From Escherichia coli (GTDB taxonomy: Bacteria; Pseudomonadota; Gammaproteobacteria; Enterobacterales; Enterobacteriaceae): a DNA stretch of 64,000 nt. Numbering within the stretch: position 1 is the first letter of the stretch; each line of letters begins with the position of its first letter. The notes under the pieces are model-generated. The model ran no database searches. It saw only the letters and a program-made list of their open reading frames with translations, and was not told the origin of the DNA. The position numbers and the translations under genes were made by a program. The stretch lies in assembly GCF_050920415.1 (NCBI RefSeq), contig NZ_CP169309.1. One strand, written 5' to 3'. Positions 1,068 through 47,373 of the stretch are shown piece by piece.

Positions 1068-1076
1068 AAGAGGTTA

Positions 1077-1439
1077 TTGATGGGGATAGAATTTGTTTTG
1101 CCTTACCCGCCGACGGTAAATACCTACTGGCGTCGTCGTGGCAGCACATATTTTGTATCAAAAGCAGGGGAGCGTTATCGCCGGGATGTGGCGCTTATTG
1201 TTCGCCAGCAGCGGCTGAAATTAAATCTGTCCGGAAGGCTGGCAATAAAAATTATTGCAGAGCCACCGGATAAGCGCCGTCGTGACCTGGACAATATTCT
1301 GAAAGCACCACTGGATGCACTGACACATGCGGGACTGCTTATCGACGACGAGCAGTTTGATGAAGTTAATATTATGCGCGGTCAGGTTGTTCCCGGTGGT
1401 CGGCTGGGGATAAAAATCACAGAACTGGAGTGCGCATGA
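1077..1439 (+). CDS. rusA: RusA crossover junction endodeoxyribonuclease (Holliday junction resolvase)
   Basis: 120-aa translation recognisably matches the RusA family; typical nin-region position upstream of Q. Confidence 0.9.
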   Translation: MMGIEFVLPYPPTVNTYWRRRGSTYFVSKAGERYRRDVALIVRQQRLKLNLSGRLAIKIIAEPPDKRRRDLDNILKAPLDALTHAGLLIDDEQFDEVNIMRGQVVPGGRLGIKITELECA

Positions 1440-2101
1440 ATAACCAGTATTTACAGTTTGTGCGTGAGCAGCTCACGATCGCCACCGCTGATTTGAGTGG
1501 AGCAACAAAAGGTCAGCTTGAAGCCTGGCAGGAGAATGCCATGTTCAATACAGGGCGTTACAGACGTAAAAAAATCCGGTACCGCGATAAGGTCACTGGA
1601 AAAATAGTAACGCTGGATAATCCACCGATCCCGGGAAAGCAATCGCTGGCGAAAGGTTCATCAATTGCCCTGGTCAGTCCGGTTGAGTTTTCGACATCAT
1701 CATGGCGACGCGCCGTTCTGTCTCTTGAAGAACATCATAAAGCCTGGCTGCTGTGGTGTTACAGCGGTAGCATTTGCTGGGAGCATCAGATCGCGATAAC
1801 GCAGTGGGCGTGGATTGAATTTAATGCTCAATCCGGTACCAGAAAAATTGCAGGAAAAACTCTGGTGCGCCTGAAGACGTTGAGCTGGTTGGCGGCGCAG
1901 GCGGTAAAAGCTGAGCTTTTTGGTGGGGAAGGTTACGAATACCAGGAACTGGCGTTACTGGTGGGAGTAACAACCAAAAACTGGTCCAAGACATTTACTG
2001 GTCACTGGGTTGCAATGAAACACATTTTTCATCGGCTGGATAGTGAAGCTTTATTGTTAGTGGAGAGAACACGTTCAAAACAAAAGGCGGCATTTTCATA
2101 G
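1430..2101 (+). CDS. Putative late-gene antiterminator (Q-family by position)
   Basis: 223-aa ORF immediately upstream of a promoter plus short-transcript terminator (pR'/tR' arrangement) and the late region; assignment by synteny, sequence not confidently recognised. Confidence 0.45.
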   Translation: MRMNNQYLQFVREQLTIATADLSGATKGQLEAWQENAMFNTGRYRRKKIRYRDKVTGKIVTLDNPPIPGKQSLAKGSSIALVSPVEFSTSSWRRAVLSLEEHHKAWLLWCYSGSICWEHQIAITQWAWIEFNAQSGTRKIAGKTLVRLKTLSWLAAQAVKAELFGGEGYEYQELALLVGVTTKNWSKTFTGHWVAMKHIFHRLDSEALLLVERTRSKQKAAFS

Positions 2102-2108
2102 CAAAGTA

Positions 2109-2137
2109 TTGCAAAAGTAGATTAAAACGCATATATT
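2109..2137 (+). promoter_or_regulatory. pR'-like late promoter (TTGCAA -17 bp- TATATT) immediately after the Q-like stop
   Basis: -35 TTGCAA at 2109-2114, 17-bp spacer, -10 TATATT at 2132-2137. Confidence 0.4.
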
Positions 2138-2188
2138 TCGTGTAAATCTGATATTTTGCCGTTTTTATACGTGATGGCAAAGCTAGTA

Positions 2189-2214
2189 AAACCCGCGACC
2201 GAGCGGGTTTTTTA
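2189..2214 (+). terminator. tR'-like rho-independent terminator (aaacccgc-gaccga-gcgggttt + T-run)
   Basis: Perfect 8-bp stem, 6-nt loop, followed by T-run; about 50-70 nt downstream of the pR'-like promoter, as for lambda 6S RNA. Confidence 0.6.
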
Positions 2215-2287
2215 TCCCCCCAAAAAATGGCATAGACATTAAACGTGATGACGATTGTGCCAATACTTTCTCCATCAATGACGCCCC

Positions 2288-2317
2288 TTGACTGCATGGA
2301 ATCCAATTTGTTATGTA
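2288..2317 (+). promoter_or_regulatory. Candidate sigma70 promoter for the moron membrane-protein gene (TTGACT ... TGtTATGTA)
   Basis: Consensus-like -35 TTGACT at 2288-2293; extended -10-like TGnTATGTA about 18 bp downstream; lies after tR' and before the ATG at 2356. Confidence 0.3.
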
Positions 2318-2355
2318 ATATGTGTTGATATTTTTGAGTTGTTAATGGTGTTACT

Positions 2356-3069
2356 ATGAATGACAGTGCTCTGCTCAGAAACTCTTCACTTTTTGTTGCT
2401 TATATGGGCTGTCTAGGATGGGGAAGCGCTTATTTCTATGGATGGGGTACTTCATTTTACTATGGCTTTCCATGGTGGGTTGTCGGGGCTGGTGTCGATG
2501 ATGTTGCACGAAGTTTGTTTTATGCTGTGACAGTTATCGTTATATTCCTTATTGGATGGGGAGTTGGTATTGTTTTCTTTTTGGGCATAAAACAAAAGCG
2601 CAATATACAAAATTTGAGTTTTATCCGGCTTTTTCTCGCGATATTGCTGCTTTTTATTCCACCTGTTCTGGAGTTTTCGGTAATTCATCAGCATGTTGAG
2701 CCAGATGTACTGATTTTCTGCATTCTTGCTGCCTTTACAATCACGCTTTTTGTCAGGTCTGGAAGAAGACTTGTTTCAGTCAAATGTTTTTCGGAAATGT
2801 CTTTTATTCGCCATCACCGAATTGAGTTCATGATGGCTGGGTTTATGATTTATTTCTGGGCATTCTCTCTTATTGCCGGTTGGTACAAACCACAGTTTAA
2901 GAGGGAATATCAGGCGATCCACTATGAGAATGTATGGTATTACATTATTGCGCGTTATGATGATCGTCTGGTGTTATCGAAATCATACAGGAGTGGGGGT
3001 AAGAAATTCGTTATATTTAATAGCGGAAATATTAATGATTTTGAAATTAATACTATCAGAGTGCGTTAA
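2356..3069 (+). CDS. Uncharacterised integral membrane protein (about 4 predicted TM helices, Trp/Tyr/Gly-rich N-terminus, about 60-aa soluble C-terminal tail); moron
   Basis: 237-aa ORF, AT-rich codon usage unlike flanking phage genes, hydrophobic segments visible in translation; no family recognised. Confidence 0.7.
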   Translation: MNDSALLRNSSLFVAYMGCLGWGSAYFYGWGTSFYYGFPWWVVGAGVDDVARSLFYAVTVIVIFLIGWGVGIVFFLGIKQKRNIQNLSFIRLFLAILLLFIPPVLEFSVIHQHVEPDVLIFCILAAFTITLFVRSGRRLVSVKCFSEMSFIRHHRIEFMMAGFMIYFWAFSLIAGWYKPQFKREYQAIHYENVWYYIIARYDDRLVLSKSYRSGGKKFVIFNSGNINDFEINTIRVR

Positions 3070-3243
3070 AATTTCTTGAGTAATGAAGATTTTTACTGCC
3101 CGGCATTGAGCGGTTTTTTTATGCCAGAAAAATGGTGTGGTACATAAAATGTGCTGGTGGTTATTAATACCGGTCTTTCAGCTTGCTGGCTTTTTCGACA
3201 AGAGTTATTGGTATGTCACGTTAACCAATAAAGAGAAAAAGAC

Positions 3244-3441
3244 ATGCTAAAACAGCAGGATATGACCGAAACAGCCAGAGTGGTGTTTAATGAATTAAGC
3301 GTCACTGAACCGGCAACAGTTGGGGAAATTGCGCAGAATACTTACCTTTCACGCGAACGCTGCCAGTTAATACTGACCCAGCTTGTGATGGCGGGTCTGG
3401 CAGATTATCAGTTCGGTTGTTACAGACGCCTTCCGCAGTGA
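3244..3441 (+). CDS. Small (65 aa) putative winged-helix/HTH DNA-binding protein
   Basis: Helix-turn-helix-like segment (ATVGEIAQNTYLSRERCQLILTQLVMAGLA); own rho-independent terminator overlapping the stop. Confidence 0.45.
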   Translation: MLKQQDMTETARVVFNELSVTEPATVGEIAQNTYLSRERCQLILTQLVMAGLADYQFGCYRRLPQ

Positions 3442-3452
3442 AGGCTTTTTAC
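3428..3452 (+). terminator. Rho-independent terminator (gccttc-cgcagt-gaaggc + TTTTT)
   Basis: 6-bp perfect stem plus T-run overlapping the stop of the 65-aa ORF. Confidence 0.5.
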
Positions 3453-3591
3453 TTTGTGGTAATGGGCGGCTGGTGGGTGTTAGCGGCACCTGCCAGCCAT
3501 CTGCTCATGTGTTGAGGTCACAAGCAAACCTCAGGCCCATCTGCTTTGCGCAAAAGCGGTATGAGCCTATCAGAGAAGTGCTTATTGATCT

Positions 3592-4677
3592 ATGGCTAAT
3601 ACTGTAAAAATATCCAGTTGTGAGTTAATCAACACTGATTGCCTGGAATTTATCCAGACCTTATCGGAAAACTCTGTCGATCTTATAGTCACAGACCCGC
3701 CATATTTTAAAGTGAAGCCCGAGGGCTGGGATAACCAGTGGAAGGGCGACGATGATTACCTAAAATGGCTGGACCAGTGTCTGGCTCAGTTCTGGCGGGT
3801 ACTGAAGCCTGCCGGAAGTCTTTACCTGTTTTGTGGTCATCGCCTGGCATCTGATATCGAAATCATGATGCGTGAGCGCTTTAATGTGCTGAACCACATT
3901 ATCTGGGCGAAGCCGTCCGGACGCTGGAACGGGTGCAACAAAGAAAGCCTGCGGGCGTATTTCCCGGCAACAGAGCGCATTCTGTTTGCCGAACATTATC
4001 AGGGGCCATATCAGCCAAAAAATGCCGGCTATGCGGCAAAGGAGCGCGAGCTTAAACAACACGTCATGGCCCCGCTGATTTTTTACTTTCGTGATGCGCG
4101 TGAATCACTGGGAATAACGTCCAAACAGATAGCGGAAGCCACCGGAAAGAAAAACATGGTGTCGCACTGGTTTGGTACCAGTCAGTGGCAGTTACCGAAC
4201 GAAGCTGATTACAGAAAACTGCAGGCGCTGTTCGCGCGTGTTGCAGAAGAAAAACACCAGCGTGGGGAGCTGGCAACGCCACACCAACTGCTGGTCAGCA
4301 CATACAGTGAACTGAACCGGCAATATGCCAGTCTGCTTGAGGAATACAAATCTCTGCGGCGTTATTTTTCTGTATCGGCCGCCGTTCCTTATACGGATGT
4401 CTGGACGCATAAGCCCGTACAGTATTATCCGGGTAAGCATCCCTGCGAAAAACCGGCGGATATGTTGCGTCAGATAATTTCTGCCAGCAGTCGTCCGGGG
4501 GATGTGGTTGCGGATTTTTTTATGGGATCGGGGGCAACAATAAAAGCAGCAATGGGATTGGGGCGTCGCACGATTGGGGTTGAACTTGAGTCCGGGCGTT
4601 TTGAACAAACAGTTGGTGAAATATTGGTGCTGAACGATAAATTGCGAAATGCACAATTAGATAAGAACAGGAGCTAA
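3592..4677 (+). CDS. DNA methyltransferase, beta-class (N6-adenine or N4-cytosine); apparently orphan
   Basis: Motif IV DPPY near N-terminus (LIVTDPPYF), motif I FxGxG-like (DFFMGSGAT) near C-terminus; no restriction endonuclease ORF adjacent. Confidence 0.85.
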   Translation: MANTVKISSCELINTDCLEFIQTLSENSVDLIVTDPPYFKVKPEGWDNQWKGDDDYLKWLDQCLAQFWRVLKPAGSLYLFCGHRLASDIEIMMRERFNVLNHIIWAKPSGRWNGCNKESLRAYFPATERILFAEHYQGPYQPKNAGYAAKERELKQHVMAPLIFYFRDARESLGITSKQIAEATGKKNMVSHWFGTSQWQLPNEADYRKLQALFARVAEEKHQRGELATPHQLLVSTYSELNRQYASLLEEYKSLRRYFSVSAAVPYTDVWTHKPVQYYPGKHPCEKPADMLRQIISASSRPGDVVADFFMGSGATIKAAMGLGRRTIGVELESGRFEQTVGEILVLNDKLRNAQLDKNRS

Positions 4678-5197
4678 TCCTCGATTAATATCTAAGCCAA
4701 GCAGGATGCTTGGAAGTTCTGATATATTCTTATCGTTTTTCGGTATTTAAAACTGATTTTCGCTGGTTGCGAAAGCACGTGGTCGGGCACTGCGTTCACA
4801 CATGCAGGAGGGTGTGAAGTCAGCTTTTTTTCTGTGTATTCAGATGGCGTTCTGATTCTATAACGAGTTACGTGGACATCAGGGATGGAGAGAATAGGAA
4901 CGCCATCTTAATACATTTTCCCCGTTTATTTGATATATCTTCCGGATAAGGGATTAGGTCTGGTTTTTTATGTCATTCAATAACGCTCTTCTATACTGTA
5001 TACAATACTTTATCCTGGCAGTGTGTTTAAAACCTGAACTTATCCTTTGTTTCGTTTATAGACAGAAGGGTTAATATCGACTTATCATCAGCAGGATGGC
5101 AACAGATGTGTAAGCAGCTGGTCACCAGTTATACTTCAGTGGTACTTCTGAGTGCTTCTCTCCGTGAAATGATTATCATCCAGATGACAGGAGTAGA

Positions 5198-5476
5198 GTG
5201 AATATTGATGATATTTCCAGGTGCTCCAGCTTGTTGCAGCGTATTGAGGATGTTAATGCTGAACGAGCCAGGGCCTTTAGTCGTTTGACAGTTATATTTT
5301 CTACCCCTGATCGCCTTTCAGGAAAGAACATTGTTTTATTAAACAGTGATGCCATCCATAAGGTTTTTGAAGAGTTCATGGCTGCTAATTCAGAATTGCT
5401 GGCTCTTGTTGAGGAATACAACGAGATAGCCAGCCGTGTCGGTATGGATGAATTCAACGTCATACTTCGTGGATAA
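5198..5476 (+). CDS. Hypothetical protein (92 aa), GTG start with AGGAG RBS
   Basis: ORF preceded by AGGAG at 5187-5191 and followed by a strong terminator. Confidence 0.45.
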   Translation: MNIDDISRCSSLLQRIEDVNAERARAFSRLTVIFSTPDRLSGKNIVLLNSDAIHKVFEEFMAANSELLALVEEYNEIASRVGMDEFNVILRG

Positions 5477-5499
5477 AAACATGCTTCATATTTTCTGTT

Positions 5500-5524
5500 A
5501 GCTCGCTACGGCGAGCTTTTTTTG
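5500..5524 (+). terminator. Rho-independent terminator (agctcgc-tacg-gcgagct + T-run)
   Basis: 7-bp perfect stem, tetraloop, T-run of 8. Confidence 0.65.
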
Positions 5525-5657
5525 TATCTGAGCCACACCTGGCGCACATCAAAAACACAGAGCCTTTCAGGAGGTGCTTACGGGATTGTCAGTGTGACTT
5601 TCACTGTGGGCTGGTAACCATCTGGCGCAGGCTCGTCTACGCAAAGGAAAAGTCACG

Positions 5658-6083
5658 ATGTTAGGTATTTTCAAAAAGAAAACCCGCAAGGCCATCACAG
5701 AAGTGAAGAAGATGGAGAACCGTGATGCGGTGGAGGCGACCGTCTGGGGCGCATATTCCATTGCATATGCCGACGGCACCTGCGATGCGAAAGAAATCGC
5801 AGTACTGGAGAAAACTATTGCTGCGCTTCCTGCTTTTGCACCGTTCTCTGGTGAGATTGCCCAGATGAGCGCCAATATCCGCGCCCGTTATGAAGCGTCA
5901 CCGCGTAGTGCGAATGCGCATGCATTGCGTGAGCTGGCTGATGTGGCGGGGACAACTGAGGCGGTTGACGTGCTTTGCCTCTGTCTGGATATCGCTGATC
6001 AGGATGGCATTGGTCCGGATGAAGAAGCGCAGCTCAAGAAAATTGCACAGGCGCTTCAGTTACCACTGGAGCAGTATCTGTGA
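5658..6083 (+). CDS. TerB-like (tellurite-resistance TerB / DjlA N-terminal domain family) protein
   Basis: 141-aa helical protein whose acidic C-terminal motif (LCLCLDIADQDGIGPDEEAQLKKIAQAL) is typical of TerB-domain proteins. Confidence 0.55.
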   Translation: MLGIFKKKTRKAITEVKKMENRDAVEATVWGAYSIAYADGTCDAKEIAVLEKTIAALPAFAPFSGEIAQMSANIRARYEASPRSANAHALRELADVAGTTEAVDVLCLCLDIADQDGIGPDEEAQLKKIAQALQLPLEQYL

Positions 6084-6232
6084 AAAGTGCGGGCCTTGTG
6101 CTGGCTGCCATCCTGTTGTTTCTGGTAGTGGCAGTGGATTTCACTGGATGGCTGATGTCGGTACTGGCTGATGGTGTGCTGGTGGCGATGGTAACGGTCT
6201 TACTCTGGCCTTTACTTCGCAAATCTGAATAA
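6080..6232 (+). CDS. Possible small hydrophobic membrane protein (about 50 aa, GTG start overlapping the TerB-like stop)
   Basis: Unannotated frame reading VKSAGLVLAAILLFLVVAVDFTGWLMSVLADGVLVAMVTVLLWPLLRKSE; two hydrophobic stretches; start codon uncertain. Confidence 0.3.
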   Translation: MKSAGLVLAAILLFLVVAVDFTGWLMSVLADGVLVAMVTVLLWPLLRKSE

Positions 6233-6317
6233 ACAGCCTACAAAAGGTATCTGCGGGTACCTTTGATAAAGTTTTTTAGGGCCGCTGATGGTCCTTTTTA
6301 TTTACAGGAGAATAAAT

Positions 6318-6710
6318 ATGTCTGAACCCTTATCCGGTTCCGGCACTGCTGTGGCGCTCGGCGGGGCGACGGTATTCGGGCTGTTTACCGGGACGGATTT
6401 CGGGATTGTATTTGGTGCGTTCGCTGGTGCGTTATTTGTGGCAACAATGCCGCAGACACTTTCAGCCTGGCGTGTGGCTGCACATTTTCTGGTGTCCTTT
6501 ATTGTTGGTGTGCTTGGGGCCCGTGGTGTGGCCGGTTACATGGCGGAACGTATTGGGTTTAACAGTGCTTCCGTTGATGCGTTGTGTGCGGTCCTGGTGT
6601 CGGTGCTCTCAGTAAAAGTCCTGTCATTCATCCACCAGCAGGAGATTACATCACTGGTATCCGGTCTGTTCTCCCGTCAGCGTGGAGGAGGTGGTGGTAA
6701 TGACAAATAA
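6318..6710 (+). CDS. Putative holin (multi-TM membrane protein, Gly-rich C-terminus)
   Basis: ATG at 6318 preceded by AGGAG; about 3 hydrophobic helices; lies upstream of the endolysin. Confidence 0.55.
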   Translation: MSEPLSGSGTAVALGGATVFGLFTGTDFGIVFGAFAGALFVATMPQTLSAWRVAAHFLVSFIVGVLGARGVAGYMAERIGFNSASVDALCAVLVSVLSVKVLSFIHQQEITSLVSGLFSRQRGGGGGNDK

Positions 6711-6978
6711 TCTTCCAGGATTACTGAATGCGGCGTTATGTACGGTTATCGTACTGACGCTTTTTTTCTACCGCAGAAAAGAGTCCCGACACAAACCGCT
6801 GATATCGTGGTGCGCCTGGTGTCTGATGCTGTTGTATGCGATAACGCCGTTAAGTTATCTCTGTGGTCATCCGTTGCCGGCAGACTGGCTGGTAGTGATG
6901 CTGAACCTGGTGTTTGGTGTCATGGTAGTGCGTGCGCGCGGTAATGTTTCAAAAATTTTTGCTTTCCTGAGTGGCTGA
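6700..6978 (+). CDS. Putative holin/antiholin-like small membrane protein
   Basis: 92-aa hydrophobic protein (start MTNNLPGLL) overlapping the preceding gene's end and the endolysin start. Confidence 0.5.
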   Translation: MTNNLPGLLNAALCTVIVLTLFFYRRKESRHKPLISWCAWCLMLLYAITPLSYLCGHPLPADWLVVMLNLVFGVMVVRARGNVSKIFAFLSG

Positions 6979-7525
6979 TATGAAATCGAGAGATGAAATT
7001 TTTGATGAAATCCTCGGAAAAGAGGGGGGGTATGTCAGTCATCCTGACGATACAGGCGGAGCGACGAAGTGGGGAATTACTGAAAAAGTGGCGCGCGCGC
7101 ATGGTTACCGTGGTGATATGCGTGATTTGAGCCGCGGGCAGGCTCTGGAAATCCTTGAGGCAGACTATTGGTATGGACCTCGTTTTGACCAGGTGGCAAA
7201 CCTGTCTCCTGATATTGCTGCAGAACTGTGTGATACCGGGGTAAACATGGGGCCGTCGGTAGCCACAAAAATGCTTCAGCGCTGGCTGAATGTGTTTAAT
7301 CAGAAGGGAATGCTGTATCCGGACATAGTTACAGACGGGGGGATCGGGCCGCGAACCATTAATGCGTTACGTTCTTATCTGAAAAATCGCGGCAGGGATG
7401 GCGAACTGGTACTGGTGAAAGCCCTGAACTGTACGCAGGGTGAGCGTTATCTGGCGCTGGCAGAGAAACGCGAGGCTAACGAGTCGTTTGTCTATGGCTG
7501 GATGAAAGAGCGCGTTGGTTTATAA
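6971..7525 (+). CDS. Endolysin, glycoside hydrolase family 108 with C-terminal peptidoglycan-binding domain
   Basis: N-terminal EILGKEGGYVSHPDDTGGATKWGI motif characteristic of GH108 lysozymes. Confidence 0.85.
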   Translation: MADMKSRDEIFDEILGKEGGYVSHPDDTGGATKWGITEKVARAHGYRGDMRDLSRGQALEILEADYWYGPRFDQVANLSPDIAAELCDTGVNMGPSVATKMLQRWLNVFNQKGMLYPDIVTDGGIGPRTINALRSYLKNRGRDGELVLVKALNCTQGERYLALAEKREANESFVYGWMKERVGL

Positions 7526-7533
7526 ACTCATCG

Positions 7534-7558
7534 AAAAGGTCACTTCGGTGGCTTTTTT
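7534..7558 (+). terminator. Rho-independent terminator with UUCG tetraloop (aaaaggtcac-ttcg-gtggc + T-run)
   Basis: Stem with G-U wobble pairs, UUCG loop, T-run of 6, immediately after the endolysin stop. Confidence 0.5.
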
Positions 7559-7726
7559 ATTGTTCAAAAAACGAAAGAACGGAGGTACGTATGTACGCAC
7601 TGAAAAAGATTACGGTAACTGAAGATGGTCGTCAGTAGACTGGCCCCCTGAATCTCCAGACAACCAGTATCACTTAAATAAGTGATAGTCTTAATACTAG
7701 TTTTTAGACTAGTCATTGGAGAACAG

Positions 7727-8092
7727 ATGATTGATGTCTTAGGGCCGGAGAAACGCAGACGGCGTACCACACAGGAAAAGATCGCAATTGTTCAGCAGAG
7801 CTTTGAACCGGGGATGACGGTCTCCCTCGTTGCCCGGCAACATGGTGTAGCAGCCAGCCAGTTATTTCTCTGGCGTAAGCAATACCAGGAAGGAAGTCTT
7901 ACTGCTGTCGCCGCCGGAGAACAGGTTGTTCCTGCCTCTGAACTTGCTGCCGCCATGAAGCAGATTAAAGAACTCCAGCGCCTGCTCGGCAAGAAAACGA
8001 TGGAAAATGAACTCCTCAAAGAAGCCGTTGAATATGGACGGGCAAAAAAGTGGATAGCGCACGCGCCCTTATTGCCCGGGGATGGGGAGTAA
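7727..8092 (+). CDS. insC: IS2 transposase OrfA (InsC)
   Basis: Translation [41 protein letters not shown]... matches IS2 InsC. Confidence 0.9.
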
Positions 8093-8955
8093 GCTTAGTC
8101 AGCCGTTGTCTCCGGGTGTCGCGTGCGCAGTTGCACGTCATTCTCAGACGAACCGATGACTGGATGGATGGCCGCCGCAGTCGTCACACTGATGATACGG
8201 ATGTGCTTCTCCGTATACACCATGTTATCGGAGAGCTGCCCACGTATGGTTATCGTCGGGTATGGGCGCTGCTTCGCAGACAGGCAGAACTTGATGGTAT
8301 GCCTGCAATCAATGCCAAACGTGTTTACCGGATCATGCGCCAGAATGCGCTGTTGCTTGAGCGAAAACCTGCTGTACCGCCATCGAAACGGGCACATACA
8401 GGCAGAGTGGCCGTGAAAGAAAGCAATCAGCGATGGTGCTCTGACGGGTTCGAGTTCTGCTGTGATAACGGAGAGAGACTGCGTGTCACGTTCGCGCTGG
8501 ACTGCTGTGATCGTGAGGCACTGCACTGGGCGGTGACTACTGGCGGCTTCAACAGTGAAACAGTACAGGACGTCATGCTGGGAGCGGTGGAACGCCGCTT
8601 CGGCAACGATCTTCCGTCGTCTCCAGTGGAGTGGCTGACGGATAATGGTTCATGCTACCGGGCTAATGAAACACGCCAGTTCGCCCGGATGTTGGGACTT
8701 GAACCGAAGAACACGGCGGTGCGGAGTCCGGAGAGTAACGGAATAGCAGAGAGCTTCGTGAAAACGATAAAGCGTGACTACATCAGTATCATGCCCAAAC
8801 CAGACGGGTTAACGGCAGCAAAGAACCTTGCAGAGGCGTTCGAGCATTATAACGAATGGCATCCGCATAGTGCGCTGGGTTATCGCTCGCCACGGGAATA
8901 TCTGCGGCAGCGGGCTTGTAATGGGTTAAGTGATAACAGATGTCTGGAAATATAG
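8050..8955 (+). CDS. insD: IS2 transposase OrfB (InsD), DDE integrase-type
   Basis: 301-aa translation matches IS2 InsD; overlaps insC in the -1 frame as in IS2. Confidence 0.9.
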
Positions 8956-9236
8956 GGGCAAATCCAGTCAGGTTGAGGAAGTGCATGTCCTGGGGGGATA
9001 TGTATCGTATGGAGTTTTACCCGCGTAATACCCATCTGGCAGCAAAAATTGAGTATTGCCGGAACGGGAATATTTCATGTTTGCAGGTAGAGAAAACGGA
9101 TGAGGCTTATATCACTACGCTGAACGGCGATACGATGTCAGCGCCAATGATATAAGACAGTAATTCACCATTTGGATTGTCCGCTCCACCCAACATGTTG
9201 TTTCCTTAAGGTTCCTACACCACAAAGGGAACACTC

Positions 9237-11202
<1,966 letters not shown>

Positions 11203-11419
11203 TGACCAATAGCGGACATTAAAAATGGCGAAAAACGGCCAATAATCTTGGCGTTGACAACGATGCGTTGCATCTGTCGCGGCGACAGTAAAGCCCGGAA
11301 TGAAATGGCCAGATGTCGTACTCATACCAGTGAATAACAAGTAAAACCCCGGCGGCTGAAACAACCAAGGGGTTAACAGTGTAAATAAAACTGCCCATAT
11401 TGATGGGCAGCGCATGTAA

Positions 11420-11713
11420 TTATTGTGAGCAATAGACCCGAGCTTCAAGCGGAGTATAAATGCCTAAAGTAATAAAACCGAGCAATCCATTTACGAATGT
11501 TTGCTGGGTTTCAGTTTTAACAACTTTATCTGCGCCACCACAAATTTTGGCTGCATCGACAGTTTTCTTCTGACCAATTCCTGAAACGAAGAAATGATGA
11601 GTGATGGTTTCCTTCGGTGTTACTGTTGTAGGTTTGTTTTCAACTGTAAACGTCTGTTGAGCACATCCAGAGATAAGCAGCGCCAGTGTGAAAGTGAGTA
11701 GCGTTTTTTTCAT
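11420..11713 (-). CDS. bor: Bor lipoprotein (lambda Bor/Iss family)
   Basis: 97-aa translation with lipobox LLISGC, recognisably matching lambda Bor; minus strand between lysis region and cos as in lambda. Confidence 0.9.
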   Translation of the reverse strand: MKKTLLTFTLALLISGCAQQTFTVENKPTTVTPKETITHHFFVSGIGQKKTVDAAKICGGADKVVKTETQQTFVNGLLGFITLGIYTPLEARVYCSQ

Positions 11714-11937
11714 CGTGTGATTCCCGTTGTGTTTTTAAGTTTGGTGCATCGTATTTGTGGAAATTTAAACAAAACCTAAACAATGAGTTGAAATCTCATA
11801 TTGTTAATGTTTATTAAAGTATGCCAGATGTGCTGTATCTTTACTGTATACCCAGATTAACTATGGCCACAGCACCGACTGGTAACTCCTGTGTGGGAGT
11901 GCCGGCTACTGAGGCGGATCAAACCGGACGTTATGGT

Positions 11938-12348
11938 TTAGCGTGGAAAAATTTGAGTCGTGTTCTGGATGCTTTCGGTAAACAATAATGAGTTGTCAAA
12001 GGTATAGTAATATCTTTTGTGTTCGTGGATATTTGTAACCCATCGGAAAACTCCAGCTTTAGCCAGATTTACCCTGTATTCATGAAATGTGATTTCTCTT
12101 GATTTCAACTTATGAAGGTAAGTTTCTATAAGTCGCGTGTCTCTGCAAAAGCTAACATGAATAACATCATGGAAACCTTTTATTAACACCGTGTTATCGC
12201 TCTCAAATACAATGTGAATATTACCTGTGGCTAAATAGTAAATGTAATGTGAGACATTGTGGCGTTTTAGTTCAGAGTAAAACCGGTCACAGTTTAAATC
12301 TTTCCGCACTTGATCAAATATTTCTTTAAAAATGGCAACCTGAGCCAT
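11938..12348 (-). CDS. Uncharacterised protein (136 aa), AT-rich moron
   Basis: Minus-strand ORF in the bor-cos interval; AT-rich codon usage; no family recognised. Confidence 0.5.
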
Positions 12349-12907
12349 CAGTATCCCCTTGTATATGATATGAGGGGCGTAGTCTGCATGAGTGCTTTTA
12401 ATACTGCAATCTGGTCAGATGTCTTTATCGTATATTGATGATTATTGTCGGATAGTATGAGGTTTTCTCAACTCATGGAAATACCGGAAGGTGCGAAAAT
12501 TACTAAGTAAGAAGAGTTACATAAGCCCTTCATACAGTGAAGGGCTTATGTAATCTTAGAAATAAAAAACCGGTCATAGGGAGCTACACAGAACCGGTCG
12601 GCGAAGACCGCCAATACCACCCATGCATCGATGCAACATACTAATGACAATAGCTGCTATTGATGTAAATGCAATGTTATGCATCGACGAAAATAAAAAA
12701 CCGGCAGGGGAAATCCATTGAAGACTTGCCGGTGGCAAAAGTTGCCAATGCTTTTATAACCGTAGTCACAGAGTTACGAAGTGCAACACCGACTGCTGCT
12801 GGTATATGGATGAATGGCGTTTCAATGATGTGCATCATTCAAATCACAAATAGTATTGATACTTATTCTCGGTTTTGCGGGTCCTTTCCGGTGATCCGGC
12901 AGGCTAC

Positions 12908-12919
12908 GGGGCGGCGACC
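12908..12919 (+). other. cosN cohesive-end site (GGGCGGCGACCT), lambda type; cosB expected in the following ~180 bp
   Basis: 12-nt sequence GGGCGGCGACCT followed by AGCGGGTTTTCGCTATTTA, matching the lambda left end as recalled; lies just upstream of Nu1. Confidence 0.8.
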
Positions 12920-13597
12920 TAGCGGGTTTTCGCTATTTACGAGTTTTTTTGAGGTGATGGTTGTTGTTTTATCGTTTGATATATCTACTTGATAAGTAAT
13001 AAGAAAGAAAAATAAACACAACAACCTGATGATCTTTCTTATACGAAAAAGCATGTAAAATCAGAGGGTTTTACAAAAAACGTGGTTGTTGTATTGCTTT
13101 TTTGCCGGTGGTTTATGGAGGGGCTGTGGCCTTTTTATTGAATAAAAGCGACATGGCCTCCTCCATCGGTATCTCAGTACAGGCATTTGATAAATGGGGT
13201 GTTCCTCCTGTTGAGCGCCGGGGGAGAGAGGTTTTCTATGACGTTAAAACTGTACTGGAGATAGATCGCGAGCGACGTCAACAAAACCAGAAATCTTCAG
13301 GTGGTGAAAATGATCTTGAGGAAAGGCTACTTCAGGCCAGGGTTAACCTGACGGAAGAACAGGCTATTGCTCAGCGGTTAAAAAACCAGGTTGCAGAGCA
13401 TAAGGTGATTGATACAGCTTTCTCTATTTTTGCCCTGTCCCGGTTATCCGGAGAACTGGCATCTGTTTTGGACAGTATTCCGCTTTCGATGCAAAGAAAA
13501 TTCCCTGAATTGACAGGCAGACAATTGGCTTATCTAAAAGAGCTGGTTGCGAAGGGGGCTAATAAATGCGTTGAGTCCGCTGAAAAAATGAAGGAAT

Positions 13598-17310
<3,713 letters not shown>

Positions 17311-17330
<20 letters not shown>

Positions 17331-18630
17331 TCTCCCGCATATTGCCAGCATGGCCTTTAATGAGCCGCTGATGCTTGAACCCGCCTATGCGCGGGTTTTC
17401 TTTTGTGCGCTAGCAGGCCAGCTTGGGATCAGCCGCCTGACAGATGCGGTGTCCGGTGACAGCCTGACTGCCCCGGAGACACCCGCGACGCTGGCGTTAT
17501 CTGGTGATGATGACGGACCACGACAGGCCCGCAGTTATCAGGTCATGAACGGCATCGCCGTGCTGCCGGTTTCCGGCACGCTGGTCAGCCGGACGCGGGC
17601 GCTGCAGCCGTATTCGGGGATGACCGGTTACAACGGCATTATCGCCCGTCTGCAACAGGCTGCCAGCGATCCGATGGTGGACGGCATTCTGCTCGATATG
17701 GACACGCCCGGCGGGATGGTGGCGGGGGCATTTGACTGCGCTGACATCATCGCCCGTGTGCGTGACATAAAACCGGTATGGGCGCTTGCCAACGACATGA
17801 ACTGCAGTGCAGGTCAGTTGCTTGCCAGTGCCGCTTCCCGGCGTCTGGTCACGCAGACCGCCCGGACAGGCTCCATCGGCGTCATGATGGCTCACAGCAA
17901 TTACGGTGCAGCGCTGGAGAAACAGGGCGTGGAAATCACGCTGATTTACAGCGGCAGCCATAAGGTGGATGGCAACCCCTACAGCCATCTTCCGGATGAC
18001 GTCCGGGAAACACTGCAGTCCCGGATGGATGCAACCCGCCAGATGTTTGCGCAGAAAGTGTCGGCATATACCGGCCTGTCCGTGCAGGCTGTGCTGGATA
18101 CCGAGGCTGCAGTGTACAGCGGTCAGGAGGCCATTGATGCCGGACTGGCTGATGAACTTGTTAACAGTACCGATGCGATCACCGTCATGCGTGATGCACT
18201 GGATACACGTAAATCCCGTCTCTCAGGAGGGCGAATGACCAAAGAGACTCAATCAACAACTGTTTCAGCCACTGCTTCGCAGGCTGACGTTACTGGCGTG
18301 GTGCAAGCGACGGAGGGCGAGAACGCCAGCGCTGCGCAGCCGGACGTGAACGCGCAGATCACCGCAGCGGTTGCGGCAGAAAACAGTCGCATTATGGGGA
18401 TCCTCAACTGTGAGGAGGCTCACGGACGCGAAGAACAGGCATGCGTGCTGGCCGAAACCCCCGGTATGACCGTGGAAACGGCCCGCCGTATTCTGGCCGC
18501 AGCACCACAGAGTGCACAGGCGCGCAGTGACACTGCGCTGGATCGTCTGATGCAGGGGGCACCGGCGCCGCTGGCTGCAGGTAACCCGGCATCTGATGCC
18601 GTTAACGATTTGCTGAACACACCAGTGTAA
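17311..18630 (+). CDS. C: Head maturation protease/scaffold C (GTG start with GGAGGAG RBS); Nu3 scaffold encoded in-frame in its 3' portion
   Basis: 439-aa translation from GTG 17311 (VTAELRNLPHIASMAFNEPLMLEP...) matches lambda gpC; the ORF-track start at 17176 lies within B. Confidence 0.9.
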
Positions 18631-18639
18631 GGGATGTTT

Positions 18640-18972
18640 ATGACGAGCAAAGAAACCTTTACCCATTACCAGCCGCTGGGCAACAGTGACCCGGCTCATA
18701 CCGCAACCGCGCCCGGCGTATTGAGTGCGAAAGCGCCTGCAATGACCCCGCTGATGCTGGACACCTCCACCCGTAAGCTGGTTGCGTGGGATGGCACCAC
18801 CGACGGTGCTGCCGTTGGCATTCTTGCAGTTGCTGCTGACCAGACCAGCACCACACTGACGTTCTACAAGTCCGGCACGTTCCGTTATGAGGATGTGCTC
18901 TGGCCGGAGGCTGCCAGCGACGAGACGAAAAAACGGACCGCGTTTGCCGGAACGGCAATCAGCATCGTTTAA
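18640..18972 (+). CDS. D: Head decoration protein D
   Basis: [12 protein letters not shown]... matches lambda gpD (110 aa). Confidence 0.9.
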
Positions 18973-18990
18973 CTTTACCCTTCATCACTA

Positions 18991-19014
18991 AAGGCCGCCT
19001 GTGCGGCTTTTTTT
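18991..19014 (+). terminator. Hairpin plus T-run in the D-E intergenic region
   Basis: ggccgc-ctgt-gcggc stem followed by TTTTTTT. Confidence 0.4.
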
Positions 19015-19027
19015 ACGGGATTTTTTT

Positions 19028-20053
19028 ATGTCGATGTACACAACCGCCCAACTGCTCGCGGCAAATGAGCAGAAATTTAAGTTTGATCCGCTGTTTCTGC
19101 GTCTCTTTTTCCGTGAGAGCTATCCCTTCACCACGGAGAAAGTCTATCTCTCACAAATTCCGGGACTGGTAAACATGGCGCTGTACGTTTCGCCGATTGT
19201 TTCCGGTGAGGTTATCCGTTCCCGTGGCGGCTCCACCTCTGAATTTACGCCGGGATATGTCAAGCCGAAGCATGAAGTGAATCCGCAGATGACCCTGCGT
19301 CGCCTGCCGGATGAAGATCCGCAGAATCTGGCGGACCCGGCTTACCGCCGCCGTCGCATCATCATGCAGAACATGCGTGACGAAGAGCTGGCCATTGCTC
19401 AGGTCGAAGAGATGCAGGCAGTTTCTGCCGTGCTTAAGGGCAAATACACCATGACCGGTGAAGCCTTCGATCCGGTTGAGGTGGATATGGGCCGCAGTGA
19501 GGAGAATAACATCACGCAGTCCGGCGGCACGGAGTGGAGCAAGCGTGACAAGTCCACGTATGACCCGACCGACGATATCGAAGCCTACGCGCTGAACGCC
19601 AGCGGCGTGGTGAATATCATCGTGTTTGACCCGAAAGGCTGGGCGCTGTTCCGTTCCTTCAAAGCCGTCAAGGAGAAGCTGGATACCCGTCGCGGCTCTC
19701 ATTCCGAGCTGGAGACAGCGGTGAAAGACCTGGGTAAAGCGGTGTCCTATAAGGGGATGTATGGCGATGTGGCCATCGTCGTGTATTCCGGACAGTACGT
19801 GGAAAACGGCGTCAAAAAGAACTTCCTGCCGGACAACACGATGGTGCTGGGGAACACTCAGGCACGCGGTCTGCGCACCTATGGCTGCATTCAGGATGCG
19901 GACGCACAGCGCGAAGGCATTAACGCCTCTGCCCGTTACCCGAAAAACTGGGTGACCACCGGCGATCCGGCGCGTGAGTTCACCATGATTCAGTCAGCAC
20001 CGCTGATGCTGCTGGCTGACCCTGATGAGTTCGTGTCCGTACAACTGGCGTAA
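19028..20053 (+). CDS. E: Major capsid protein E
   Basis: 341 aa from ATG 19028 (MSMYTTAQLLAANEQKFKFDPLFLRLFF...) matches lambda gpE. Confidence 0.95.
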   Translation: MSMYTTAQLLAANEQKFKFDPLFLRLFFRESYPFTTEKVYLSQIPGLVNMALYVSPIVSGEVIRSRGGSTSEFTPGYVKPKHEVNPQMTLRRLPDEDPQNLADPAYRRRRIIMQNMRDEELAIAQVEEMQAVSAVLKGKYTMTGEAFDPVEVDMGRSEENNITQSGGTEWSKRDKSTYDPTDDIEAYALNASGVVNIIVFDPKGWALFRSFKAVKEKLDTRRGSHSELETAVKDLGKAVSYKGMYGDVAIVVYSGQYVENGVKKNFLPDNTMVLGNTQARGLRTYGCIQDADAQREGINASARYPKNWVTTGDPAREFTMIQSAPLMLLADPDEFVSVQLA

Positions 20054-20094
20054 TCATGGCCCTTCGGGGCCATTGTTTCTCTGTGGAGGAGTCC

Positions 20095-20493
20095 ATGACG
20101 AAAGATGAACTGATTGCCCGTCTCCGCTCGCTGGGTGAACAACTGAACCGTGATGTCAGCCTGACGGGGACGAAAGAAGAACTGGCGCTCCGTGTGGCAG
20201 AGCTGGAAGAGGAGCTTGATGACACGGATGAAACTTCCGGTCAGGACACCCCTCTCAGCCGGGAAAATGTGCTGACCGGACATGAAAATGAGGTGGGATC
20301 AGCGCAGCCGGATACCGTGATTCTGGATACGTCTGAACTGGTCACGGTCGTGGCACTGGTGACGCTGCATACTGATGCACTTCACGCCACGCGGGATGAG
20401 GCTGTGGCATTTGTGCTGCCGGGAACGGCGTTCCGTGTCTCTGCCGGTGTGGCAGCTGAAATGACAGAGCGCGGCCTGGCCAGAATGCAATAA
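20095..20493 (+). CDS. FI: DNA packaging protein FI
   Basis: 132 aa from ATG 20095 (MTKDELIARLRSLGEQLNRDVSLTGTKEELA...) matches lambda FI. Confidence 0.9.
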   Translation: MTKDELIARLRSLGEQLNRDVSLTGTKEELALRVAELEEELDDTDETSGQDTPLSRENVLTGHENEVGSAQPDTVILDTSELVTVVALVTLHTDALHATRDEAVAFVLPGTAFRVSAGVAAEMTERGLARMQ

Positions 20494-20504
20494 CGGGAGG
20501 CGCT

Positions 20505-20879
20505 GTGGCTGATTTCGATAACCTGTTCGATGCTGCCATTGCCTGCGCCGATGAAACGATACGCGGGTACATGGGAACGTCAGCCACCATGACATCCGGT
20601 GAGCAGTCCGGTGCTGTGATACGTGGTGTTTTTGATGACCCTGAAAATATCAGCTATGCCGGACAGGGCGTGCGCGTTGAAGGCTCCAGCCCGTCCCTGT
20701 TTGTCCGGACTGATGATGTGCGGCAGCTGCGGCGCGGCGACACGCTGACCATCGGTGAGGAAAACTTCTGGATAGACCGGATTTCGCCGGATGATGGCGG
20801 AAGCTGTCATCTCTGGCTTGGGCGGGGCGTACCGCCTGCCGTTAACCGTCGCCGCTGGAAGGGGGATGTATGGCCATAA
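20505..20879 (+). CDS. FII: Head-tail connector protein FII
   Basis: Translation MADFDNLFDAAIA...DETIRGYMGTSAT matches lambda FII. Confidence 0.9.
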   Translation: MADFDNLFDAAIACADETIRGYMGTSATMTSGEQSGAVIRGVFDDPENISYAGQGVRVEGSSPSLFVRTDDVRQLRRGDTLTIGEENFWIDRISPDDGGSCHLWLGRGVPPAVNRRRWKGDVWP

Positions 20880-21448
20880 AAGGTCTTGAGCAGGCCGTTG
20901 AAAACCTCAGCCGTATCAGCAGAACGGCGGTGCCCGGTGCCGCCGCAATGGCCATTAACCGCGTTGCTTCATCCGCGATATCGCAGTCGGTGTCACAGGT
21001 TGCCCGTGAGACAAAGGTACGCCGGAAACTGGTAAAGGAAAGGGCCAGGCTGAAAAGGGCCACGGTCAAAAATCCGCAGGCCAGAATCAAGGTTAACCGG
21101 GGGGATTTGCCCGTAATCAGGCTGGGTAATGCGCGGGTTGTCCTTTCGCGCCGCAGGCGTCGTAAAAAGGGGCAGCGTTCAGCCCTGAAAGGTGGCGGCA
21201 GCGTGCTTGTGGTGGGTAACCGTCGTATTCCCGGCGCGTTTATTCAGCAACTGAAAAATGGCCGGTGGCATGTTATGCAGCGTGTGGCCGGGAAAAACCG
21301 TTACCCCATTGATGTGGTGAAAATCCCGATGGCGGTGCCGCTGACCACGGCGTTTAAACAAAATATTGAGCGGATACGGCGTGAACGTCTTCCGAAAGAG
21401 CTGGGCTATGCGCTGCAGCATCAACTGAGGATGGTAATAAAGCGATGA
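20870..21448 (+). CDS. Z: Tail completion protein Z
   Basis: 192 aa, matches lambda gpZ. Confidence 0.9.
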   Translation: MAIKGLEQAVENLSRISRTAVPGAAAMAINRVASSAISQSVSQVARETKVRRKLVKERARLKRATVKNPQARIKVNRGDLPVIRLGNARVVLSRRRRRKKGQRSALKGGGSVLVVGNRRIPGAFIQQLKNGRWHVMQRVAGKNRYPIDVVKIPMAVPLTTAFKQNIERIRRERLPKELGYALQHQLRMVIKR

Positions 21449-21840
21449 AACATACTGAACTCCGTGCAGCCGTACTGGATGCACTGGAGAAGCATGACAC
21501 CGGGGCGACGTTTTTTGATGGTCGCCCCGCTGTTTTTGATGAGGCGGATTTTCCGGCAGTTGCCGTTTATCTCACCGGCGCTGAATACACGGGCGAAGAG
21601 CTGGACAGCGATACCTGGCAGGCGGAGCTGCATATCGAAGTTTTCCTGCCTGCTCAGGTGCCGGATTCAGAGCTGGATTCGTGGATGGAGTCCCGGATTT
21701 ATCCGGTGATGAGCGATATCCCGGCACTGTCAGATTTGCTCACCAGTATGGTGGCCAGTGGCTATGACTACCGGCGCGACGATGATGCGGGCCTGTGGAG
21801 TTCTGCCGATCTGACTTATGTCATTACCTATGAAATGTGA
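21445..21840 (+). CDS. U: Tail terminator protein U
   Basis: 131 aa, matches lambda gpU. Confidence 0.9.
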
Positions 21841-21847
21841 GGACGAT

Positions 21848-22588
21848 ATGCCTGTACCAAATCCAGCAATACCGGTGAAAGGTGCCGGGACCACCCTGTG
21901 GGTTTATAACGGGAGCGGCGACCCTTATGCGAACCCGCTTTCAGACGTTGACTGGTCGCGTCTGGCTAAAGTTAAAGACCTGACGCCCGGCGAACTGACC
22001 GCTGAGTCCTATGACGACAGTTATCTCGATGATGAAGATGCGGACTGGACCGCGACCGGGCAGGGGCAGAAATCCGCCGGAGATACCAGCTTCACGCTGG
22101 CGTGGATGCCCGGAGAGCAGGGGCAGCAGGCGCTGCTGGCGTGGTTTAATGAAGGTGATACCCGTGCCTATAAAATCCGCTTCCCGAACGGCACGGTCGA
22201 TGTGTTCCGTGGCTGGGTCAGCAGTATCGGTAAGGCGGTGACGGCGAAGGAAGTGATCACCCGTACGGTGAAGGTCACCAATGTGGGCCGTCCGTCAATG
22301 GCAGAAGATCGCAGCACGGTAACAGCGGCAACCGGTATGACCGTGACGCCTGCCAGCTCCTCGGTGGTGAAAGGGCAGAGCACCACGCTGACCGTGGCAT
22401 TCCAGCCGGAGGGCGCAACTGACAAGAGCTTCCGTGCGGTGTCAGCGGATAAAACAAAAGCCACCGTGTCGGTCAGTGGTATGACCATCACCGTGAAAGG
22501 CGTTGCTGCAGGTAAGGTCAACATTCCGGTTTTATCCGGTAATGGTGAACTTGCTGCGGTTGCAGAAATCACTGTCACCGACAGTTAA
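21848..22588 (+). CDS. V: Major tail tube protein V (with C-terminal Ig-like domain)
   Basis: 246 aa from ATG 21848 ([20 protein letters not shown]...) matches lambda gpV. Confidence 0.95.
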
Positions 22589-22603
22589 TCCGGAGAGTCA
22601 GCG

Positions 22604-23028
22604 ATGTTCCTGAAAACCGAATCATTTGAACATAACGGTGTGACCGTCACGCTTTCTGAACTGTCAGCCCTGCAGCGCATTGAGCATCTCGCCCTGATGA
22701 AACGGCAGGCAGAACAGGCGGAGTCAGACAGCAACCGGAAGTTTACTGTGGAAGACGCGCCATCAGAACCGGCGCGTTTCTGGTGGCGATGTCCCTGTGG
22801 CATAACCATCCGCAGAAGACAAAGCTGCCGTCCATGAATGAAGCCGTTAAACAGATTGAGCAGGAAGTGCTTACCACCTGGCCCACGGAGGCAATTTCTC
22901 ATGCTGAAAACGTGGTGTACCGGCTGTCTGGTATGTATGAGTTTGTGGTGAATAATGCCCCTGAACAGACAGAGGACGCCGGGCCCGCAGAGCCTGTTTC
23001 TGCGGGAAAGTGTTCGACGGTGAGCTGA
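22604..23028 (+). pseudogene. G: Tail assembly chaperone G, disrupted by a 2-nt insertion near 22757-22760
   Basis: Two overlapping ORFs (22604..22837 and 22783..23028) each carry part of the lambda G sequence; reading switches frame at GAAGACGCGCCATC. Confidence 0.75.
23004..23010 (+). other. Programmed -1 ribosomal frameshift slippery heptamer GGGAAAG (G to G-T fusion)
   Basis: GGGAAAG at the 3' end of G with the T reading frame opening at this point, as in lambda. Confidence 0.8.
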
Positions 23029-23444
23029 GTTTTGCCCTGAAACTGGCGCGTGAGATGGGGCGACCTGACTGGCGTGCCATGCTTGCCGGGATGTCATCCA
23101 CGGAGTATGCCGACTGGCACCGCTTTTACAGTACCCATTATTTTCATGATGTTCTGCTGGATATGCACTTTTCCGGGCTGACGTACACCGTGCTCAGCCT
23201 GTTTTTCAGCGATCCGGATATGCATCCGCTGGATTTCAGTCTGCTGAACCGGCGCGAGGCTGACGAAGAGCCTGAAGATGATGTGCTGATGCAGAAAGCG
23301 GCAGGGCTTGCCGGAGGTGTCCGCTTTGGCCCGGACGGGAATGAAGTTATCCCCGCTTCCCCGGATGTGGCGGACATGACGGAGGATGACGTAATGCTGA
23401 TGACAGTATCAGAAGGGATCGCAGGAGGAGTCCGGTATGGCTGA
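23010..23444 (+). CDS. T: Tail assembly protein T (normally expressed only as the G-T frameshift fusion)
   Basis: 144-aa frame matching lambda T. Confidence 0.85.
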   Translation: MFDGELSFALKLAREMGRPDWRAMLAGMSSTEYADWHRFYSTHYFHDVLLDMHFSGLTYTVLSLFFSDPDMHPLDFSLLNRREADEEPEDDVLMQKAAGLAGGVRFGPDGNEVIPASPDVADMTEDDVMLMTVSEGIAGGVRYG

Positions 23445-27022: not shown

Positions 27023-27027
27023 ATCCC

Positions 27028-28310: not shown

Positions 28311-28370
28311 TGCAAAATGTTTTATGTGAAACCGCCTGCGGGCGGTTTTATCGTTTATGGAGCGTGAGGA

Positions 28371-47343: not shown

Positions 47344-47373
47344 AAAGCCCCGAGATGTCGGGGCCAGAATAAA

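Follow-up and report, generated by a model that had tools for sequence, protein, structure and literature searches.

What packaging specificity is encoded at a cos site that carries the cohesive end of lambda but reads its DNA with a small terminase subunit (TerS) that is not that of lambda? What DNA a phage, or a satellite hijacking it, can pack into capsids is set by this specificity, which therefore shapes gene flow between co-resident prophages. The site considered here lies in an Escherichia coli prophage; the window referred to below is the whole 64,000-nucleotide stretch of DNA that was analyzed. According to our analysis, the site is very probably a natural chimera, in which lambda cosQ and cosN are followed by an N15/“Monarch”-type cassette of about 750 bp and then by the lambda body of the large terminase subunit (TerL) and lambda head and tail genes.

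The part of the site at which the DNA would be cut agrees closely with lambda. Its subsites are as follows, with base pairs (bp) counted from the nick:

12879–12885 (−30 to −24), plus strand: cosQ, GGGTCCT, the packaging-termination subsite, at the same offset as in lambda and as the annotated cosQ of phage 21
12909–12920, plus strand: cosN cohesive end, GGGCGGCGACCT, 12/12 positions identical to lambda and to phage 21
12908/12909 (top strand) and 12920/12921 (bottom strand): cosN nicks, predicted from the sequence
12921–12942, plus strand: conserved right flank of cosN (lambda bp 13–34); past the cohesive end, 20/23 nt are as in lambda

A preliminary description of this DNA had noted the 12-nt cohesive end of lambda and about 20 lambda-like nucleotides after it. 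Both observations were confirmed by the alignment, and the cohesive end has a single exact match in the 64-kb window. Over the whole cos junction, from −38 to +37, 64 of 75 bp are identical to lambda, and all seven positions of cosQ are invariant among 14 related loci. As judged from the sequence, the match of cosN to lambda is not a product of chance. An open reading frame at 12669–12992, which spans cosN, was dismissed as coding because it crosses the conserved cos subsites. The cos site of a PICI or another satellite was also rejected, since PICI cos sites are without repeated R sequences and since a TerS/TerL pair and head genes follow here.

With cosQ, cosN and the following 23 nt almost as in lambda, and with TerL and the head and tail genes at about 97% identity to that phage, the site might be taken for an ordinary cos site of lambda whose cosB and Nu1 are lambda-identical as well. 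This reading has practically no chance of being correct. Anchored at the nick, the alignment with lambda retains 8 of 18 identical positions at bp 48–65 and 32 of 125 at bp 66–190, TerS is 38% identical to Nu1, and blastn detects no lambda homology at 12468–13680 except for a short island at cosQ and cosN. The identity of Nu1 and cosB with lambda, which the preliminary description had set against its own proposal, is thus ruled out by the alignments.

The limits of the foreign DNA can be placed on both sides. To the right, blastn aligned the window at 13681–30828 with lambda (788–17963) at 96.8% identity, and the junction is sharp: the number of identities per 30 columns rises from 10–14 to 26–30 at 13682, that is, at TerL codon 27–30. 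To the left, weaker lambda homology was found by blastn in bor (86%) and in a DUF1398 gene (82%), and the junction itself was located with the help of phiSTEC1575-Stx2k. Over cosQ, cosN and the right-end region, its identity to the window is 95%; about 30 bp past the nick, the phage switches to lambda cosB and a near-identical lambda Nu1. The boundaries are:

about 12940–12945: left boundary of the cassette, from the comparison with phiSTEC1575-Stx2k
about 13682–13692: right boundary of the cassette, from the jump in identity to lambda

On the basis of both junctions, the swapped unit extends over about 12940–13690 and comprises cosB, the whole TerS gene and the docking tip of TerL. At this locus, the specificity module thus moves as one unit, and its joints are the right flank of cosN and the TerL segment VEWADxxYYLPKES, both of which are conserved.

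Within the cassette, the DNA between cosN and the TerS gene has the layout of a complex cosB, with three R repeats in the order +/−/+, an inverted R2, and R3 near bp 50–65:

12959–12967 (bp 51–59 from the nick), plus strand: R3 core, GGTTGTTGT; the extended site covers about 12953–12975
12982–12994 (bp 74–86), minus strand: I1, an IHF-like site, TATCAAGTAGATA, with one mismatch to WATCAANNNNTTR
13018–13026 (bp 110–118), minus strand: R2 core, GGTTGTTGT, inverted; 9/9 columns invariant in 11 relatives
13084–13092 (bp 176–184), plus strand: R1 core, GGTTGTTGT, direct; 9/9 columns invariant in 11 relatives

The preliminary description had called for the identification of the R sites and of the IHF site of cosB. 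The former were found as three GGTTGTTGT cores, all in a stretch of 134 bp that lies between cosN and the gene for TerS; these are the only copies of this 9-mer in the 64 kb, where 0.57 would be expected. Both the direct–inverted–direct order and the place of the first copy correspond to the R3–R2–R1 layout of lambda and phage 21, the latter annotated with R3 at 50–65, R2 at 107–122 and R1 at 150–166. R3, with 8/9 core columns invariant in the alignment of related loci, is the predicted critical binding site of the small terminase. The search for the IHF site gave a less firm answer. The one-mismatch candidate at bp 74–86 has the position and strand of the annotated I1 of phage 21 (bp 74–86), and 9 of its 13 columns are invariant in 11 relatives, but the match alone is not significant, because 56 one-mismatch matches to the IHF consensus were counted in the window against 54 expected. 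Since such matches are not rare, the assignment to IHF rests on position and conservation. A second one-mismatch match, at 12969–12981 on the minus strand, adjoins I1 and is not conserved in the relatives.

The same overall architecture, the identical cosN and the position of the candidate I1, which is at bp 74–86 in phage 21 as well, could be explained by phage 21 specificity, i.e., by a natural hybrid of the lambda-21 type. However, we consider this extremely improbable, given that 4 of 18 positions at bp 48–65 and 10 of 46 residues of the DNA-binding domain (in comparison with gp1) agree with phage 21, and that the GGTTGTTGT core is absent from the phage 21 cosB sequence that was compared. 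The N15/Monarch cassette on a lambda backbone remains our preferred reading.

The small terminase and its regions are listed below, with identities by region given as identical over aligned residues:

13126–13632, plus strand: TerS, Nu1 family, 168 aa, GTG start, with GGAGG at 13117–13121
residues 1–48: DNA-binding domain (predicted wHTH); lambda 17/46, N15 36/48, phage 21 10/46
residues 49–92: linker; lambda 13/44, N15 11/44, phage 21 12/44
residues 93–127: central block; lambda 21/35 (60%), N15 21/35, phage 21 13/35
residues 128–168: C-terminal 41 aa; lambda 11/40 (28%), N15 11/41, phage 21 8/41

The open reading frame at 13102–13632 scored 77 bits with Pfam Phage_Nu1 (PF07471; cut-off 30). 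The coordinates of the preliminary description had implied that Nu1 starts at the ATG at 13153. This codon is residue 10, and the start is almost certainly the GTG at 13126, as indicated by the ATG that relatives have in the aligned column, by the GGAGG 4 nt upstream in the window, and by the PGAP start call at the same GTG in 99.9%-identical genomes (WP_000874941.1). Over its full length, TerS shares 46% of its residues with N15 gp1, 38% with lambda Nu1 and 26% with phage 21 gp1. The N-terminal DNA-binding domain does differ from that of lambda, as had been proposed; the C-terminal terminase-interaction region, proposed to be conserved, is not, and the part that is conserved with lambda is the central block. 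The domain by which TerS binds TerL has been assigned to the C-terminal 40 residues (PMC9026076), and the diverged residues 128–168, which are no better conserved than the N-terminus, presumably bind TerL.

The recognition helix was positioned by alignment to lambda residues 17–24, which form the recognition helix there (PMC9026076). It reads QAFDKWGV (residues 19–26), identical to N15 gp1, whereas lambda has RTIQNWQE. The wing is three residues shorter than that of lambda, as in N15, and the whole DNA-binding domain is 92–98% identical to that of other prophage loci with a complex cosB. In a structural model of TerS (pLDDT 79.6), a beta-alpha-alpha-wing-alpha arrangement at residues 4–56 is followed by long helices. 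A Foldseek search of the PDB with the full-length model, dominated by the long helix, returned no match with E < 0.08 and weak MerR-like matches only; a phmmer search of the PDB with TerS found nothing, and neither terminase subunit had a match in NCBIfam.

The gene for the large subunit contains the right junction of the cassette:

13604–15529, plus strand: TerL, gpA family, 641 aa, ATG start, lambda-type from about residue 30
13604–13690, plus strand: N-terminal non-lambda segment of TerL, the first 27–30 codons, with the identity jump at 13682

TerL matched the Pfam families GpA_ATPase (172.8 bits, cut-off 25.6) and GpA_nuclease (251.5 bits, cut-off 22.5), and its full length is 96.9% identical in amino acids to lambda gpA. 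The differences are concentrated at one end: of the 30 residues before the conserved W-x(4-6)-Y-x-LP motif, 47% are those of lambda, and in the 400 aa that follow the identity is 100%. By module, the identities to lambda are 100% for the TerL body, 47% for the TerL N-terminal 30 aa and 32–43% for TerS. Across the loci compared, the distances of the TerS modules were correlated with those of the TerL N-terminus (rho 0.53–0.58; 0.53 for the TerS C-terminus) more strongly than with those of the TerL body (rho 0.21–0.39). This correlation of module distances moderately supports the co-inheritance of TerS and the TerL N-terminus, a segment that presumably docks the TerS C-terminus. Our analysis indicates that the TerS/TerL interface pair travelled together with cosB.

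The preliminary description had likened the mosaic specificity of this locus to that of phage 21 relative to lambda. The joining of lambda cosQ and cosN to a non-lambda cosB and TerS supports the core of this idea, and its details have to be revised. The non-lambda part is not the TerS N-terminus alone but the whole of TerS with the first 27–30 codons of TerL, and no lambda C-terminus has been retained. The specificity class is that of neither lambda (bp 48–65 and the recognition helix disagree) nor phage 21 (bp 48–65 and the DNA-binding domain disagree) but of N15, with the helix QAFDKWGV and the core GGTTGTTGT. With lambda, the locus shares the identical cosQ and cosN and the R3–I1–R2–R1 layout (I1 being a candidate site) at similar spacing; it differs in the sequence of the R sites, the recognition helix, TerS as a whole and its C-terminus, and the N-terminal 30 aa of TerL (identities as given above).

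The likeness to N15 extends from the DNA to the protein that would read it. The R core GGTTGTTGT occurs at bp 50–58 in N15 and at bp 51–59 in the window, and GGTTGTTGTTT, which comprises the R3 core together with the T-rich flank on its 3′ side, is common to both R3 sites with this 1-bp offset. The recognition helix is identical, the wing is equally shortened, and 36 of 48 residues of the DNA-binding domain agree. In contrast, the simple cosB of N15 has R3 only and no IHF site, its rR2 lies within gene 1 at bp 250, and this gene starts at bp 89; the cosN of N15 deviates from that of the window at 2 of 12 positions; and the gp1 C-terminus and the gp2 N-terminus of N15 are lambda-like, unlike their counterparts in the window.

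In order to place the locus among its relatives, IMG/VR was scanned with the TerS alignment. Among the 80 loci obtained, cosN and R-like cores (at most one mismatch to GGTTGTTGT) were located in 50, and the loci separated cleanly into two classes. The “simple” class, which includes N15, has R3 at bp 50–51, an inverted copy at bp 250–251 inside the gene, and the gene start at bp 89–90. In the “complex” class, R3 lies near bp 51 and is followed by an inverted R2 near bp 110; R1 is located at bp 176 or about bp 188, and the gene starts at bp 218–230. The scan is validated by N15 itself, in which the inverted copy found at bp 250 corresponds to rR2 as published (bp 249–260). The window falls into the complex class and is without rR2, none having been found within 320 bp of the TerS gene start. 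When 11 non-identical loci of the complex class were aligned, 26 of 27 R-core columns were invariant; in the spacers the figure is only 63 of 133, and upstream of cosQ it is 5 of 45. We read this pattern of conservation as a clear phylogenetic footprint on the proposed cosB subsites.

These data also bear on the possibility that the window has in function an N15-type simple cosB, in which a single R3 works together with an accessory site elsewhere, and the R2 and R1 copies and the IHF-like site are non-functional leftovers. N15 works with R3 alone and has nearly the same DNA-binding domain, R1 is merely accessory in lambda, and the spacer before R1 varies by 11–12 bp between subgroups. Nevertheless, this explanation appears quite improbable: R2 and R1 are invariant in the 11 loci while the spacers drift, the TerS gene starts at bp 218 and not at bp 89, and rR2 (bp 250) is absent.

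A complex cosB with N15-type recognition has a precedent in the Monarch group, which was reportedly defined in a 2015 paper in Virology. The “Monarch” prophages combine a strong match to the R3 of N15 and a TerS recognition helix identical to that of N15 with the absence of rR2; of the three R sequences in their cosB, R2 is inverted, and R3 and R2 are separated by an IHF site (Feiss et al., 2015; PMC4669245). As judged from this published description, the window agrees with every feature of it that was tested, and cosQ and cosN are lambda-like in both. The window is a further example of this already described N15/Monarch kind of complex cosB, on a lambda backbone. Our literature search for further mentions of Monarch prophages found none, and its matches referred to the name of a DNA-purification kit. 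Within the class, the window differs from the main group in several respects. Its R2–R1 spacer is 11–12 bp shorter, the TerS gene has a GTG start, the TerS C-terminus is 49–53% and the TerL N-terminus 50–60% identical to those of the main group, and the TerL body to which this subtype is joined is identical to that of lambda.

The cassette (at least 94% identity over at least 80% of the query) was present in 15 of 5,426 complete E. coli genomes, and proteins related to TerS occur widely in prophages from Klebsiella, Salmonella, Trabulsiella, Edwardsiella and Hafnia, among others. Among 50,697 phage records, no isolated phage had a TerS more than 60% identical, and megablast with 12349–13700 found in the same records no phage with this cosB and TerS; the matches covered the right-end/cosN piece only (phiSTEC1575-Stx2k, phi458 and the cdtI phage).

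The laboratory hybrids lambda-21 hy51 and lambda-N15 hy4 (PMC4669245) resemble the window in having a lambda backbone and a foreign left end with cosB and the DNA-binding part of TerS. In these hybrids, however, the crossovers lie inside the TerS gene and generate a chimeric TerS with a lambda C-terminus, whereas in the window the crossover lies at TerL codon 27–30, so that the whole of TerS and its docking partner are foreign. Since the recognition helix is that of N15, the cos site of the window should reject service by the terminases of lambda and phage 21. N15 specificity has been found to be asymmetric, with the N15-specific terminase packaging lambda DNA (PMC4669245), and by analogy the terminase of the window may package lambda DNA as well.

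A mechanism for the site can be outlined by analogy with lambda (PMC4669245, PMC9026076), and we infer binding, bending and cutting alike from this analogy. IHF would bend the DNA at I1, and the winged-helix domains of a TerS dimer would dock at R3 and R2 across the bend, with R1 as an accessory site. TerL would be held by the TerS C-terminus through its co-inherited N-terminus. R3 (bp 51–59) would then position the lambda-type nuclease for the nicks in cosN, staggered by 12 nt and leaving 5′ ends, and packaging would be terminated at the next cos by means of cosQ.

More tentatively, and with somewhat less than even confidence, we propose that the window delimits a minimal exchangeable specificity cassette with an uncharacterised class of docking pair, formed by the TerS C-terminus (KGANKCVESAEKM...EYYR) and the TerL N-terminus. 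If this is true, the first approximately 30 residues of TerL would be sufficient to set the specificity for the TerS partner, and the prophage would offer a system with lambda genetics for the use of an IHF hairpin by an N15-type TerS at a complex cosB. The complex N15-type cosB has so far been described only bioinformatically, and a version on an almost pure lambda backbone would be a convenient experimental handle. The current understanding of cos function is not changed by this locus.

The prophage is located at the ydfJ (Qin) locus of E. coli, and from about 35.3 kb on the window consists of chromosomal DNA (ydfJ to lsr). We take the ydfJ site to be that of the defective Qin prophage in K-12. 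Integration at this site is one reason to ask whether the cos site is an inert relic of a defective prophage, preserved in sequence and no longer used. The rearranged side tail-fibre region points in the same direction, as does a 3.6-kb insertion of IS2 and ISEc62 (IS21 family) at 7636–11259, which breaks the late operon between the endolysin gene and bor. The insertion sits upstream of cos in an operon that is transcribed to reach the terminase genes, and terminase expression in this prophage may be abnormal as a result. On the other hand, the insertion is recent, since it is absent from otherwise 99.9%-identical prophages. The homologues of lambda genes A to J, which include the terminase, head and tail genes, are all full length with 79–100% amino-acid identity, in a region that is about 97% lambda overall; all cos subsites are intact; and the cassette is maintained in many genomes. 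An inert relic is thus unlikely, and we favor a chimeric cos site that is intact in all its parts.

Finally, the preliminary description had characterized the approximately 500 bp upstream of the site as AT-rich and containing several hairpins. The AT-richness is moderate, with a GC content of 0.38–0.455 compared to about 0.52 in the head genes, and the adjoining bor and DUF1398 genes are equally AT-rich. The hairpins are real and enriched, with four terminator-like sites against 0.5 expected. The strongest of them is:

12517–12553, minus strand: palindromic hairpin with a stem of 16 pairs in one count and 20 in another, −26.2 kcal/mol, z = −9.0

None of 200 shuffled sequences folded as well as this hairpin, which is terminator-like when read leftward, and two further hairpins in the upstream region are followed by U6 on the minus strand. 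An Rfam scan of 11000–14000 (E ≤ 1) returned no RNA family, and the upstream hairpins are therefore not a known RNA. The hairpin at 12517–12553 is probably not part of cos, and the upstream hairpins are regarded as features of the non-coding region at the right end of lambdoid genomes rather than of the cos site.

The subtype of complex cosB (the R3-I1-R2-R1 layout) formed by the window and locus L013 differs from the main group of relatives (L016-L039) in the spacer between R2 and R1 (13027-13083 in the window), which is shorter by 11-12 bp, about one helical turn. Counted rightward from the cosN nick, R1 lies at bp 176 in this subtype vs. bp 188 in the main group, and the gene starts at bp 218 vs. 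bp 229-230. A further element is limited to the window and L013 and is absent from the other relatives; it adjoins candidate I1 and shares sequence with the 3' flank of R3:

12969-12981, minus strand: second IHF-like site, TATCAAACGATAA, with one mismatch

Other arrangements were found as well. The Stx2k-converting phage phiSTEC1575-Stx2k has the right-end region, cosQ and cosN in common with the window (1501-1894 vs. 12549-12939, 95% identity) and changes to a lambda-type cosB and Nu1 about 30 bp past the nick. This phage is a natural case of an alternative cassette at the joint seen in the window. A third cos arrangement is represented by three IMG/VR loci (L014, L015 and L040), with cosN reading GGGCGACGTCCG, R3 present together with an inverted R2-like GGTTGTTAT, and the gene start at bp 203-207; a search of these loci for the R1 core detected none. 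Two of them, L014 and L015, carry the TerS C-terminus closest to that of the window (80-82%).

The non-coding right-end region contains three hairpins:

12517-12553: hairpin
12573-12610: hairpin
12693-12733: hairpin

One of them (-26 kcal/mol, z = -9) is a palindrome of 20 pairs, and the remaining two are followed by U6 in the minus-strand reading. Rfam gave no family matching the three hairpins (12517-12733); they look like leftward terminators, located upstream of the leftward DUF1398-bor unit. The DUF1398 gene (11938-12348, minus strand) encodes 136 aa vs. 177 aa in its lambda homologue lambdap78 (lambda 47042-47575), while DNA homology of the region to lambda (82%) extends beyond the gene to 12467, which suggests either a different start or a truncated N-terminus.

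An insertion of 3.6 kb (7636-11259) consists of IS2 and the IS21-family element ISEc62, with IS2 either adjoining ISEc62 or nested in it:

7682-8092 and 8050-8955: IS2 ORFs
9237-10283: istA of ISEc62
10405-11202: istB of ISEc62

The insertion, flanked by the GH108 endolysin and bor, is located within the late operon, upstream of cos. The prophage of strain MB07081, which is 99.9% identical, lacks the insertion, so it may render the prophage copy in the window defective.

At its right end, the prophage is bordered by a truncated ydfJ (about 35030-35292), the Qin prophage site. The following ~29 kb (35292-64000) are E. coli chromosome, 99.99% identical to strain MFDS1022581, with ydfI, rspR, dcp, the mar operon, sad, glsB and the lsr operon.
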